46,343 nt of DNA from Candidatus Nomurabacteria bacterium RIFCSPLOWO2_01_FULL_41_18 (GTDB lineage: Bacteria; Patescibacteriota; Minisyncoccia; Phycocordibacterales; UBA9973): NCBI GenBank assembly GCA_001785865.1, contig MFUZ01000008.1:1-46343 (forward strand), in the 5' to 3' direction. The position numbers were made by a program, and so were the translations under genes. The notes under the pieces are model-generated. The model saw nothing but the letters and a program-made list of their open reading frames with translations, had not been told where the DNA came from and searched no databases. Below, one piece after another: positions 1,802 to 10,083 of the stretch. The number at the start of each line of letters is the position of its first letter. Position 1 is the stretch's first letter.

Positions 1802-2803
1802 TTACTTAACTATTTTTTCTCTCAGCTTGTACCCATTCCCATGACTAATCATCCCCAAATACGACTGCACTGTTTCTACTTTCGGATTATTCTCTAAATT
1901 CTTCAACATTTTTCTCTTTGTTGATGTCCTCAAAACCCTATGCTTGGGAAAATGCACCCAGCCTAGAAAATCCACACCTGAAGCTATTGTTTTGATAAAA
2001 ACTTTATCTGGATGTAATTGCAATTTTAATTCTTTTTCTAAAAATTTGGATATTTGTGGAAGTAAATTGGTAAGATAGTTTTTATTTTCACTTAATACAA
2101 CAAAATCATCTGCATAACGTATATAATATTTTACTTTCAATTCCCTTTTCATAGATTGATCAAATTCATTCATGTAGACATTTACTAGAAGCTGAGAGGT
2201 TAGATTCCCTAGTGGCAAACCTACTTTACATATATCAGCCATGGCGTAAATGTGTCTTGGTGAGAAAAAGCTGTCAATTACCTGACTGAAGAGCCATAGT
2301 ATATTTTTATCTTTGATATGTTTTTCTAAAATCTTTTTTAATATTTCATGGTCAATATTTGCGAAGAACTTTCTAATATCACATTTCAATACAAAACAGG
2401 TTTTTGTATTGTTTTTAGAAACTTTATGAAAGAAATAACGAAATCTGTTTATTGCTTTATGGGTTCCTTTGTTGAGCCTGCAAGAATACGAATCGTGGAT
2501 GAATTTAGAGTCAAAATATGAGTATAGTTCCTGATAGATTAAATGGTGAAGTAGTCTATCTCTGACTGTCGCTTTGTGTATTTGTCTTGGTTTAGGATCA
2601 GAAATATTAAAAGCGTGATATCCACCATGTATATATGTTTTGTTTTTCAAGTCATTATACAGATCAAATACATTATCCATTAGTTTAGCTTGGAATAGAA
2701 TCACATCTTTTCTGTTCTTTTTGTCACGCAAAAATTCCTGCCAAGCTTGGAGCAGTTTTTCTATGGTTATGATATTATCGTATGTATGAATAAATTGTTT
2801 CAT
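1802..2803 (-). CDS. DGR-type reverse transcriptase
   Basis: GLPLGNLTSQ and YIRYADDF motifs, 333 aa, adjacent avd and TR/VR pair. Confidence 0.95.
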   Translation of the reverse strand: MKQFIHTYDNIITIEKLLQAWQEFLRDKKNRKDVILFQAKLMDNVFDLYNDLKNKTYIHGGYHAFNISDPKPRQIHKATVRDRLLHHLIYQELYSYFDSKFIHDSYSCRLNKGTHKAINRFRYFFHKVSKNNTKTCFVLKCDIRKFFANIDHEILKKILEKHIKDKNILWLFSQVIDSFFSPRHIYAMADICKVGLPLGNLTSQLLVNVYMNEFDQSMKRELKVKYYIRYADDFVVLSENKNYLTNLLPQISKFLEKELKLQLHPDKVFIKTIASGVDFLGWVHFPKHRVLRTSTKRKMLKNLENNPKVETVQSYLGMISHGNGYKLREKIVK

Positions 2804-3191
2804 ATTTTACCCCCCCCCCTCAGCGCCTTCAGCGCTTGTAAAAGCAAAAACGGCATATTCTCTGTGGTTTAAGATATATAATGACTTTCCGAAAGCGCAT
2901 CGTTATACTTTGGGCGGAAAGATAGAAGATTATTTTCTTGGTCTTTTAGAGAATATTTTCATTTCGATTTATCTTCCGCCGGAAACTAAAATACCTCGTC
3001 TCATCATAGCAATTTCCAAACTTGATGGCATAAAATTCTTTCTGCAAATAGCTTGGGAAAATAAATGCATTCCTAATGAAAAATATTCTACACTTTCCGA
3101 ACATCTGCAAGAAATCGGCAGAATGCTAGGCGGATGGAAAAAAGGCTTAGAAAGCCTACAAAAAAAGAAAACTCCCCCGCCCAATAATTAA
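2786..3191 (+). pseudogene. avd: Avd-like four-helix accessory protein, out of frame with its nearest ATG at a C10 run
   Basis: Frame KTAYSLW..FPKAHRYTLGGKIE...EIGRMLGGWKK is Avd-like and open from 2790; ATG 2786 joins it only if the C10 run is 9 or 12 long (134 aa with C9); ORF track starts at TTG 2910. Confidence 0.75.
2810..2819. repeat. C10/G10 homopolymer at avd/RT head-to-head junction
   Basis: Ten C on + strand; reads AGGGGGGGGGG-TAAAAT-ATG before the RT start on - strand. Confidence 0.9.
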
Positions 3192-3212
3192 AGAACGAGG
3201 AAGAAACATTGA

Positions 3213-3328
3213 GTTTCGGGGTTACGAAACGATGCCGATACTCAGCATTCCAGACGTTGTCGTTGTCGAACCGGTTCACGTTGACGTTGAGCTGACCATT
3301 GTCGTCGAAGTTCACGTTAGCAACGAAG
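3213..3328 (-). other. DGR template repeat (TR)
   Basis: 116-bp ungapped match to 3702-3817; 15 of 16 differences are at TR adenines; nine AAC/AAT codons in target frame. Confidence 0.95.
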
Positions 3329-3633
3329 AATTGTACGATAAGCCATCTATTTCACTGCCGATCTAAACGCAATTTAATGCTAGAGATCGTGCTGTATATT
3401 ATTTGGGAGTCTAAAACTCCACCAGCTCATCGCACCAACTTTTAGTTTTTTATTTTTAAAAAAGAATTCACTCTTTTGCAAGAAAATTCCGGCAAAACTC
3501 TCAAATTAATTTTTAAATAATCACGGCTTAAAGCCTTAGCCGTAAGCATTTCCTGATTACTGTTTTAATATAGCAAAAATTTAAAAGAAGAAGGGTTAAA
3601 GTATAAAAGTTGCAAAGTGTATATAAAAAGGAA

Positions 3634-3672
3634 AACCGCTCTTGCGAACGGAATTCCGTGCATAGAGCGGTT
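3634..3672 (-). terminator. Hairpin downstream of VR (DGR cis hairpin and/or intrinsic terminator)
   Basis: AACCGCTCT...AGAGCGGTT stem with inner ACGG/CCGT pairing, followed by T-rich tract on - strand, 30 nt after VR. Confidence 0.7.
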
Positions 3673-3696
3673 GATTTTTGATGTTGAGCAACAAAG

Positions 3697-4317
3697 CTAC
3701 TGTTGCGGGGCGACGAAACGATGCCGATACCCAGCACACCAGACGCTCTCGTCGTCGAACCGGTCCACGTAGACGTAGAGCTGACCACGGTCGTCGAAGC
3801 GCACGTTAGCAACGAAGCCACCTTTGACACGAAAGAATGTGCCGTAGCCTTTGGTTCGAAGCTTGTCACGGTGATCACGAATGAACTGATTAATTTGACT
3901 CTGCTCCAGTTCAAGCTCACCCACCTTACCGAGACTCTTGAAAACCGGCTCAAAAGCCCCATTCTCAATCAGCTCGTAGATAGCAACGTTAACCAACAGA
4001 GTCGGTTTGCCTGAAGATGCAGGTAGAGTCTCGCCGTAGATACGGTTACCGAAAAGTCCGCCTGATGCGAAAGTCTCGGTGCGGTCGGTGGGAACAATGG
4101 CGATTACCTCCGTTTCAGACAGACGCTTGAGGTAAATTTTTGCCTCAGCCATCTTCGGTCGTTCCCAATCACCAAACCGTTCTTCGCGGTCTTCTGGTTT
4201 GAGGTTGTTGAACCGTTCCATCTGGTCCAATGTCATTTGGCCGGCTCGTAGTTTCGTCAGTTGGTCAATTTGCAGACCAGCCAATCTGGCCGCGTCTGCG
4301 TCGATGGTATTATTCAT
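3697..4317 (-). CDS. DGR target protein with C-terminal variable region
   Basis: 206 aa; last ~39 codons coincide with VR; CLec-type fold expected from known DGR targets, not shown here. Confidence 0.9.
   Translation of the reverse strand: MNNTIDADAARLAGLQIDQLTKLRAGQMTLDQMERFNNLKPEDREERFGDWERPKMAEAKIYLKRLSETEVIAIVPTDRTETFASGGLFGNRIYGETLPASSGKPTLLVNVAIYELIENGAFEPVFKSLGKVGELELEQSQINQFIRDHRDKLRTKGYGTFFRVKGGFVANVRFDDRGQLYVYVDRFDDESVWCAGYRHRFVAPQQ
3702..3817 (-). repeat. DGR variable repeat (VR)
   Basis: A-specific variant of TR, e.g. AAC>CGC, AAT>CGT, AAC>TAC, AAT>TGT. Confidence 0.95.
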
Positions 4318-8415: not shown

Positions 8416-10083
8416 TCAGACCGTGTCCGCGGCGGCGGACTTGTCAGATCTGGTAGCTACTTTTGCTCGCGAGATCTTTTGTTTGACTTCGTTGATTCCA
8501 CGGATTGTCTCCGTGAGAAGAGTCATGTCGGCGGAAACGCGCGCAGTTCCGCGAAGGATAACGAATTTGCGCCATTCTTCAGCATTTACTGCCTGGAGTT
8601 CTATGAGCGCTAGGCTGAGAGCGTTGAAACGGCGGTCGAGCAGTTGTGTCACACGACCCGCTTCCTTTCGACGATCAGAACGCACCCCTCTTTTGTACTG
8701 GAAGAATGGTCTTCCTAACTCGTGGAGTTTCGCCACGATAAGCCTGCGACTCGGCTGGCCTTTGGCCTTATTCCAAATCTCCACTTGGTGGTCCGGATGA
8801 ATACTGCTGAGAACTGATGCTTCCAGAAGCCTAATGCGATCCTCCTCTGGAACAGACGACTTAAGGAGTGGTCTGAGGTCTGGATGGACCGATTTGATAG
8901 AGAGAAGCTTCCTGATTTGGGTCAGTGATAGGCTGGTGGCTTCAGCCAGGGAGACTTGAGTTTCTCCCGCTTCAATTTGTTCCTGAAGAGCATCCGAAAT
9001 CTCGAGCGAACTCGGATCCACTCGAAACAGATTCTCAATGAGAGACAGCATGTGTTGCTGTTTCTTTGTCACGGGTTTTTCTTCGATTGCCCTCAGATAA
9101 GGGAAACCGATGAGCTGTAGAGCTCGCCAACGACGTTCGCCGGCGATGAGTTCCCATTTTTTGCCAGCAATTGTGTCAATCCGACGAACAAGGGCAGGTA
9201 CTTTTTGACCGTGCCTTTTAATACTTCCTGCAAGTTTCTTTAGGTCACTTTCATCGAAGTCCTTGCGAGGTTGTCCTGAGAACGACGGATCACTTTCCTG
9301 CTTTTGGAAGCAGACAATTTCACTGAGGGGAATATGTAACACCAACTCCTCCCCAAGAGATTTATTCTCCAACACGGGAGCAACCGGAGCCACTGTCCGT
9401 GCCGGTGGTGAAACTGCTACAGGCGGTGGAATGACTTTTTTCTCCGGAATGACCGGCGACAATTGTACGACTAGTCGAGGAGGAGTGACTTTCGCCATCG
9501 GAAGAGTTACACGAGGCGGTGGAACCACTTCTTCTTTCTCCTCTTCATCTTCTTCTTCGGGTTTAGGTGGAGAAGCAGTGTGTGCTTCCTCTCGCCTCGT
9601 TGATCTGGGAATCGGTTTGTTAGATTTCAGAATACCATCGCGGGCAAGCATTATCTTGTACGCCTCGGCTGTTTTAGCATCTGCCATCTTACATTTGAGT
9701 TCCCAGTCATCAAGACAATTACCTCTCAGAAAAACCTCAATGGAACCGTTGGAGCTCGGGACGGCTTGGATGTACATCGTGTTGCCCGTATCGATCTCCT
9801 TCCAGATTTGAGATTGCAGTCGCACCATTTGGAAAGGCTTTTGATTGGCTGGATTGGAAGCGTCGTACGCTACCAGGAAGAGCAGACCCCCCCCTGGCGG
9901 TTGCGCCGTCGTCCTATTTGTCGCATATTTAAGTTCGACAAACCCAGCCTCTTGAAGAACTCCGAAAGCCTTGGTGTCAGAGTGCCCATTTTGCCTGCCA
10001 CTACTGACGGAGACGCCCGTTATTTCGAGGACAGTTTTACCCGTCCTCTGTGGTTTAGTTTTCATAGGTCCTTTTGTTGTCAA
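8416..10083 (-). CDS. ParB/Spo0J-family protein with long N-terminal extension
   Basis: GQPRKDFD, LIAGERRWRA, SLIEN ParB motifs after a ~150-aa unknown region and Glu/Pro-rich linker. Confidence 0.8.
   Translation of the reverse strand: MTTKGPMKTKPQRTGKTVLEITGVSVSSGRQNGHSDTKAFGVLQEAGFVELKYATNRTTAQPPGGGLLFLVAYDASNPANQKPFQMVRLQSQIWKEIDTGNTMYIQAVPSSNGSIEVFLRGNCLDDWELKCKMADAKTAEAYKIMLARDGILKSNKPIPRSTRREEAHTASPPKPEEEDEEEKEEVVPPPRVTLPMAKVTPPRLVVQLSPVIPEKKVIPPPVAVSPPARTVAPVAPVLENKSLGEELVLHIPLSEIVCFQKQESDPSFSGQPRKDFDESDLKKLAGSIKRHGQKVPALVRRIDTIAGKKWELIAGERRWRALQLIGFPYLRAIEEKPVTKKQQHMLSLIENLFRVDPSSLEISDALQEQIEAGETQVSLAEATSLSLTQIRKLLSIKSVHPDLRPLLKSSVPEEDRIRLLEASVLSSIHPDHQVEIWNKAKGQPSRRLIVAKLHELGRPFFQYKRGVRSDRRKEAGRVTQLLDRRFNALSLALIELQAVNAEEWRKFVILRGTARVSADMTLLTETIRGINEVKQKISRAKVATRSDKSAAADTV

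Follow-up and report, generated by a model that had tools for sequence, protein, structure and literature searches.

The window analysed here is the whole 46,343 nt stretch of DNA, which is one entire contig (GenBank accession number MFUZ01000008.1) of the genome of Candidatus Nomurabacteria bacterium RIFCSPLOWO2_01_FULL_41_18, a genome of 750 kb in nine contigs with 40% G+C. A complete diversity-generating retroelement (DGR) was found to span positions 1802 to 4317, and includes a gene for an RVT_1 reverse transcriptase (RT) beside a template repeat (TR) and variable repeat (VR) pair, a target gene, and the accessory gene avd (Table 1). Of the 16 positions at which TR and VR differ, 15 are TR adenines and one is a C>G change, and the VR is located at the 3' end of the target open reading frame (ORF), within its last 40 codons (ORF 3697–4317(-)). 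Homologues of the RT align with it from residue 1. The feature of interest is a run of ten cytosines (C10) at the junction between avd and the RT gene, which on balance appears, from sequence comparison, to be a hypermutable tract that is conserved within the first few codons of avd and acts as a slipped-strand switch, which would gate or grade the supply of Avd and hence DGR activity.

The target gene, TR and RT gene are all on the - strand and avd is on the + strand between TR and RT, head-to-head with the RT gene, with its TAA stop codon (3189–3191) 21 nt from the TR end at 3213. This antisense placement had been described in an earlier reading of the letters alone (the sequence-only reading), and is borne out by the coordinates. 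A profile of Avd homologues was run on the GTDB genomes and gave more than 569 relatives, the best 80 of which were fetched for comparison of the locus. All 80 carry a Patescibacteria label or resemble Patescibacteria, and the nearest are from metagenome-assembled genomes labelled Candidatus Nomurabacteria or Paceibacterota. The RT gene was found on the opposite strand immediately upstream of avd in 75 of these 80, and most of the others end at contig edges. The antisense avd layout is real, but is the known architecture B3, TR-(avd)-RT, in which target/VR, TR and RT are on one strand and avd is reversed between TR and RT, and which makes up 90% of a set of DGRs from the candidate phyla radiation (CPR) (Wu et al. 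2018, Nucleic Acids Res 46:11, PMC5758913); hence it is not new. The part of interest is the length-variable tract at the avd/RT junction. The B3 survey is silent on a homopolymer or repeat tract at this junction, and no description of one, or of a repeat tract in DGR accessory genes, was found in the searchable DGR literature, including PMC5758913.

The avd frame is open from 2790, after a TGA at 2787, to 3191 (+), and its product matched the bAvd family (PF22296) with 54.1 bits, above the curated cut-off of 40. The helical body of Avd is encoded by positions 2820–3188. An AlphaFold model made with 19 homologues is a four-helix bundle (pLDDT 92.5), which Foldseek matched to the Bordetella phage Avd (4dwl; TMt 0.84–0.89) and to the Avd chains of the DGR ribonucleoprotein (8ub7), with TM values of 0.75–0.89. 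The three prolines (PPP) encoded by the tract are directly N-terminal of helix 1 in this model, hence a variable Avd N-terminal tail should be tolerated, and the tract is predicted to lie inside the coding sequence (CDS), in the tail just before helix 1. A gene resembling that for elongation factor P (EF-P) was detected in the genome, though with a weak match, so the cell should be able to translate PPP.

In the Bordetella phage system, Avd is required by the RT for mutagenic cDNA synthesis, and it is only for this phage that Avd is known to be a pentamer which binds the RT and is required for the synthesis. The DGR of Bordetella phage BPP-1 (mtd-avd-TR-brt) also has an RVT_1 RT, an Avd four-helix bundle, and a TR and VR that differ at TR adenines. 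However, the phage avd is co-oriented and located upstream of TR, whereas avd in the window is antisense between TR and RT, so that the TR-RT region, which is spacer RNA in the phage, is antisense avd in the window. The two Avd proteins share only about 18% identity, and the phage avd is not known to carry a repeat tract.

The C10 run (2810–2819) is at once the poly-G upstream of the RT start codon and a PPP-encoding part of the avd frame, as had been noticed in the sequence-only reading, and it forms codons 4 to 6 counted from an ATA at 2802. It is the longest G/C homopolymer in the genome, which otherwise holds one C8 and ten C7 runs; about 0.12 G/C runs of at least 10 are expected by chance and one was observed. 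As a repeat in a coding or start region, it is placed as in simple sequence repeat contingency loci. The second-longest G/C run, the C8 at 9887–9894, is inside a long ORF (8416–10083(-)). As a TAA is present in frame directly upstream of the RT ATG, the G run is outside the RT ORF, in the RT 5' leader, and only avd can be frame-shifted by it in the window.

The tract was examined in 76 Patescibacteria avd/RT loci, namely 75 of the best 80 relatives and the window. From the RT start to the Avd body, the longest run of C was C7–C13 in 62 of the 76 loci, which are spread over many Patescibacteria lineages, with modes at C9 and C10. At the same site, poly-C is replaced by (TC)n in L011, L062 and L096 and by (CA)n(GA)n in L043, which suggests that proneness to slippage, and not a particular sequence, is the conserved property. 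Five loci that lack a repeat start from a clean ATG to give MNTLLKTPSVLVK or MSTILRPPVVLVK, and tract-bearing loci with an ATG in frame read M-x(1-6)-PPP-..., for example L032 (C12), which reads MQNFTPPPRAPAVLVK. Its relative L035 (C11) is one C short of the L032 frame. An in-frame ATG upstream of the tract in several homologues goes against the idea, raised as an objection to a switch, that homologues with any tract length start avd downstream of it. Across loci, the distance between the tract and the RT ATG is 6–61 nt, and the base preceding the tract is usually A, often as TCTA-Cn or TTA-Cn.

Closer relatives were obtained by scanning metagenome contigs with a genus-specific flank pattern, which gave 61 loci, about 45 of them DGRs of the genus to which the window belongs. 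Seven other species of this genus (80–92% Avd identity) carry C9 or C10 at the same site. In eight congeners of 80–92% Avd identity, the core of the tract is invariably CCC CCC CCC while adjacent codons vary synonymously and, judged from these alignments, the conservation of the tract in the genus reflects selection at the nucleotide level. The longest tract seen is the C15 of genus member L147, which is in frame with the equivalent of an ATG found at 2786 in the window (MNKLFHVVPPPPPAAPSALLK).

The flank pattern also matched an unrelated element in GC-rich metagenome contigs (L108, L114, L121, L122, L127, L128, L132, L136, L137, L140, L146, L153, L156 and L158), which has the form C7-9 GCAGCGCCTTCGGCGCTT C5-7 (A)GGGG and is located directly after stop codons. 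This element resembles a repeated terminator-like hairpin between poly-C and poly-G.

Among the genus sequences, groups of independent assemblies with flanks of 530–720 nt that are 99.9–100% identical were compared, and tract length was found to differ in four of seven such groups. In L023 (C9) and L135 (C10), the tract is the sole difference over 2562 aligned nt, and L151 (C9) differs from L130 and L131 (C8) in the tract and one substitution over 2587 nt. Tract lengths also differ between L115 (C9) and L134 (C10), and one group holds three lengths (L101, C11; L142, C10; L113, C9), with the lost C of L113 made up for by an additional T in the spacer before the tract, which restores the same frame. 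A/T homopolymers of 7–8 nt in the same aligned stretches never differ. Contig pairs of unequal tract length mostly toggle between the two frames in which avd could start.

Two further differences were seen in these comparisons. Between L115 (1944–2033) and L134, 17 substitutions that are not adenine-specific are clustered in 90 nt downstream of RT, in contigs otherwise identical over 2 kb. L106 (position 1312) and L123, which have equal C9 tracts, are distinguished, in otherwise identical sequence, by an insertion of 4 nt (TAAC) some 700 nt away from the tract.

Searches for MutS_V and MutL (DNA_mis_repair) domains gave no match in the genome containing the window, which is estimated to be 100% complete, whereas they were positive in 11 of the 14 genomes used as controls. 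In cells that lack mismatch repair, G/C runs as long as this one should be highly unstable, as is established for Campylobacter and Helicobacter. Campylobacter jejuni and Helicobacter pylori also lack MutS/MutL mismatch repair and, together with Neisseria and Haemophilus, provide the closest parallel in their intragenic poly-G/C contingency loci, where a G/C run of 8–13 near the 5' end of a CDS differs by one base between otherwise identical sequences (here, those of congeners) and all three frames are found among relatives. However, the gene that would be gated in the window encodes an accessory factor of another diversity generator and not a surface or restriction-modification protein, and the avd tract, known here from comparison of DNA sequences, is kept across a phylum-level radiation and not within one species.

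The frames into which the tract places avd were then compared in 51 unique sequences of the genus. In the window, an ATG at 2786 is offset by +1 from the avd frame, and with C10 its frame ends after 28 codons, whereas C9 would give a product of 134 amino acids (aa). That this ATG is out of frame with C10, and the 134 aa with C9, agree with the sequence-only reading. As also proposed there, the upstream ATGs that are in the avd frame (2763 and 2769) are cut off by TGA 2787. No ATG, GTG or TTG is present in the avd frame between TGA 2787 and TTG 2910 of the window, and this TTG, the first canonical start, would give 93 aa. An alternative code, in which TGA is read through and avd starts from ATG 2763 or 2769, was ruled out, as TGA is a genuine stop in this genome, with 44 of its 309 long ORFs closed by it, and translation under table 11 yields long ORFs.

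In 32 of the genus sequences, the frame of the Avd body is that of the codon overlapping the RT start (CAT|N; ATA 2802 in the window). In 11 it is that of the equivalent of ATG 2786, and in eight it is the third frame, which has no start. This bias has a chi-square p of 4e-5, uncorrected for shared ancestry. The overlapping codon is ATG in eight sequences (six in frame), ATA in 41 (26 in frame) and ATT in two; congeners with ATG include L002, L007, L025, L105, L116 and L138, and in some sequences (L006, L029 and L031) the ATA is directly followed by TTG or ATG. The lengths of the spacer and the tract covary (8+10, 11+10, 12+9, 14+10 and 15+9; Fisher p = 0.0045, again uncorrected for ancestry). 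Among 32 distinct spacers, no stops were found in either startable frame, so both may be used, and the third, dead frame has stops in 11. The 8-nt spacer of the window is shared by L126 with C10, L159 with C9 and L110 with C11. L159 reads MNKLFHILPPPSAPSALLK, which is the product that the sequence-only reading had predicted (MNKLFHILPPPS...). With an 8-nt spacer and C10, the window is in the frame preferred in the genus.

The sequence-only reading had favoured ATG 2786 as the start, with C9 or C12 as the ON state and C10 as OFF or an error, and this is not the best fit, given 11 of 51 sequences in that frame against 32 of 51 in the frame of the C10 type and the covariation of spacer and tract. 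The RT codons for Ile-His, read on the opposite strand, dictate the presence of this ATG. It was rejected as the conserved main start of avd, being a by-product of those codons, and was kept as a second state. For this genome, better support was found for the fallback that had been offered, in which avd has a non-AUG start at ATA 2802. The view that the tract is a slippage-prone switch fared well in the comparison of tract length and frame across homologues, being supported by the conservation in 62 of 76 loci, by the length differences at identical flanks and by the absent mismatch repair genes.

Table 1. Coordinates of the avd/RT junction and of the other DGR features in the window
Feature	Position	Strand	Evidence or remark
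C10 homopolymer, PPP in avd frame	2810..2819	+ (G10 on RT strand)	6 nt 5' of RT ATG (CAT 2801-2803)
avd open frame from ATA 2802, 129 codons	2802..3191	+	bAvd PF22296 match 2.4e-14
ATG in +1-offset frame (MNKLFHIL...)	2786..2788	+	complement of the RT codons for Ile-His; C9 or C12 would join it to Avd
Hairpin AGCGC-CTTCA-GCGCT	2822..2836	. (3' of tract on avd strand, 5' of G10 on RT strand)	minimum free energy -6.7 kcal/mol
DGR reverse transcriptase gene, 333 aa	1802..2803	-	RVT_1 match 2e-25; start ATG 2803-2801
Template repeat (TR), 116 nt	3213..3328	-	TR/VR comparison
Variable repeat (VR), 3' end of target gene	3702..3817	-	TR/VR comparison
Target gene, 206 aa	3697..4317	-	ORF; without Pfam match
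Terminator-like hairpin of target gene	3651-3636 (region 3600..3651)	-	consensus scan only
Promoter-like site after target hairpin	3627-3600	-	consensus scan only

In the proposed switch, slipped-strand mispairing at replication would alter the tract one base at a time and, as MutS and MutL are absent, the changes in length would go uncorrected. Each change would move the four-helix body of Avd among three frames, all of which are represented among congeners and may differ in Avd output. With the C10 of the window, Avd would be in frame with the codon overlapping the RT start, at which translation would initiate from ATA in the window and from ATG in some congeners. With C9, it would be in frame with ATG 2786, and C11 would be a dead frame with no start. 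The RT frame would be unaffected by such changes in the window, as the G run is in the RT 5' leader. If Avd is needed by the RT as in the Bordetella phage system, the tract would gate or set the level of targeted hypermutation, stochastically and heritably, with switching presumably occurring within populations of this organism.

Several points weigh against this interpretation. The preferred frame of the window and of most congeners starts only with ATA, with no ATG, GTG or TTG, and ATA is a permitted but poor initiator in model bacteria. For any single pair of contigs, a one-base difference in a G/C homopolymer can be an Illumina or assembly artefact, and some contigs have low coverage. Among the distant loci, nine (and six more with two ATGs) have the closest open ATG before the tract in frame, 23 (and six more) have it at +1 and 10 at +2. 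When only ATGs in the intergenic spacer are counted, 11 are in frame, 13 at +1 and six at +2, which is near uniform. Such near-uniform frames fit populations that are mostly OFF, but also slippage at the level of RNA or the ribosome, or starts elsewhere.

It is also conceivable, though doubtful, that the slipped-strand switch is not a plain on/off switch but a three-state dosage switch giving high, low or zero Avd. The two stop-free frames would then each have a start of their own, one at ATG 2786, which could be the first codon of a leaderless mRNA, and the other at the weak ATA (or ATG) of position 2802.

An explanation in which the tract does not gate Avd is rather unlikely. Here the tract would serve some other purpose as a nucleic-acid element, for instance within the RT 5' leader or the DGR RNA, or in spacing the promoters of the divergent genes, or would be simply a poly-proline tail, and changes in its length would be neutral or artefactual. 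Only 6 nt separate the G10 from the RT ATG downstream of it, a hairpin with compensatory changes is next to the tract in the clade of the window, the tract is usually preceded by A, often as part of the motifs given above, and both the near-uniform frames relative to upstream ATGs and the presence of TTG, GTG or ATG in frame after the tract in many distant loci would be in keeping with it. However, the window and its genus have no canonical start between the tract and helix 1, the dinucleotide repeats (TC)n and (CA)n(GA)n substitute for poly-C at the same site, and the frame preference and the compensation between spacer and tract in the genus would be unexpected if the region were untranslated.

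A role of the poly-G as a Shine-Dalgarno (SD) sequence for RT was rejected as a general one, because the tract can be anywhere from 6 to 61 nt away from the RT ATG and SD motifs are nearly unused. Upstream of 475 long ORFs of this genome, SD-like motifs were found at only about 2–4% (GGAG at 2.7%, GGAGG at 0.2%), which suggests that initiation in this organism may be SD-independent or leaderless.

A hairpin adjoins the tract in the clade of the window and carries compensatory changes (AGTGC/GCACT in L007, L008 and L030), with a 6-bp version in L004, L005, L021 and L031. It was significant against shuffled sequences in 12 of 61 loci and is missing from most distant loci, and so cannot explain the tract. 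A universal RNA structure next to the tract was thus rejected, the hairpin being clade-specific, and no Rfam match was found, which also speaks against an RNA element with a separate job.

Constitutive recoding, the next explanation to be considered, is unlikely. In this case ribosomes would initiate at ATG 2786, perhaps on a leaderless mRNA, and the Avd frame would be reached by slippage, either of RNA polymerase on the C run or, by +1, of tRNA-Pro on CCC_C, so that the length of the tract in DNA would matter little and the +1 offset would be the designed state. The +1 offset to an upstream open ATG is indeed the commonest, in 28 of 45 genus loci and 23 of 49 distant loci, and the frame of ATG 2786 has no stop before the tract in the 32 distinct spacers. 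The near absence of SD motifs makes an unusual initiation plausible, the hairpin directly after the tract in the clade of the window could stall ribosomes, and CCC_C is a +1 shift-prone site in studies of m1G37 and EF-P in Salmonella and E. coli. However, the equivalent of ATG 2786 is forced by the RT and so needs no function in avd, and the +1 offset in the genus is indistinguishable from a start at ATA or ATG 2802, as 16 nt always separate the two. Of the eight congeners with a true ATG at position 2802, six are in the frame of that codon. Most distant loci lack the hairpin, and the shift site is not followed by a slow or stop codon. Transcriptional slippage of high efficiency is known chiefly from A/T runs, and an EF-P-like gene is present, if only as a weak match.

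Known cases of programmed recoding (dnaX and transcriptional slippage in IS elements; prfB and CCC_C +1) share with avd a shift-prone run between the start and the protein body, and +1 is the commonest offset here. They differ in that the avd tract has no family-wide stimulatory element and no stop or hungry codon, and variation in its length is seen directly in DNA. A fixed conserved offset with a stimulatory element would mark a programmed frameshift or slippage, but offsets of 0, +1 and +2 all occur and the hairpin is confined to the 12 of 61 loci. A -1 ribosomal frameshift on C CCC CCC with the downstream hairpin was rejected, as the +2 offset that it requires is the rarest in the genus (7 of 45). 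RNA or ribosomal slippage may nevertheless be a contributing mechanism.

An assembly or sequencing error in the window, with a true tract of C9 or C12 and avd starting from ATG 2786, is highly improbable because, although G/C homopolymers of the length of C10 are error-prone and the same 8-nt spacer is combined with C9 in L159, C10 with this spacer also occurs in L126, C10 gives the frame that is preferred in the genus and kept by compensating spacers, and C9–C10 are the modal lengths in the 76 loci.

Other candidate elements were noted on the strand of TR and RT. The promoter-like site that follows the terminator-like hairpin of the target gene (Table 1) could initiate a transcript of TR, antisense avd and RT. 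A terminator-like hairpin followed by a U run (AGGCTTTCTAAGCCT TTTTTCC; 3143–3157(-)) is located inside antisense avd, about 56 nt after the TR end, and could end a short TR RNA ahead of RT. However, this hairpin (3157–3143(-)) is not kept in congeners, and a conserved antisense terminator after TR was rejected. Just 3' of TR on the RT strand (3159–3176(-)), the sequence GGAGGAGTTTTCTTTTC is common to congeners (L002–L155), with GGGAGTTTTCTTTTTTTG in the window. This element is the antisense of the codons for the Avd C-terminal KKTPP, and may be part of the DGR RNA rather than reflect a constraint on the protein.

DGRs are usually viewed as always-available generators of diversity, and how cells restrain them is largely unknown. 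If avd is gated by the tract, targeted hypermutation would be on in only a fraction of each population, as a form of bet-hedging atop a diversification system. This would explain why gene callers truncate or miss avd in such genomes (in the window, TTG 2910 and 93 aa) and why many CPR DGRs look inactive in metagenomes. If the tract is a dosage switch, the rate of DGR hypermutation would be a heritable, stochastic trait across much of Patescibacteria, a mutator under a mutable switch. In either case, the tract is in a DGR accessory gene and is kept across a huge uncultured radiation without mismatch repair.

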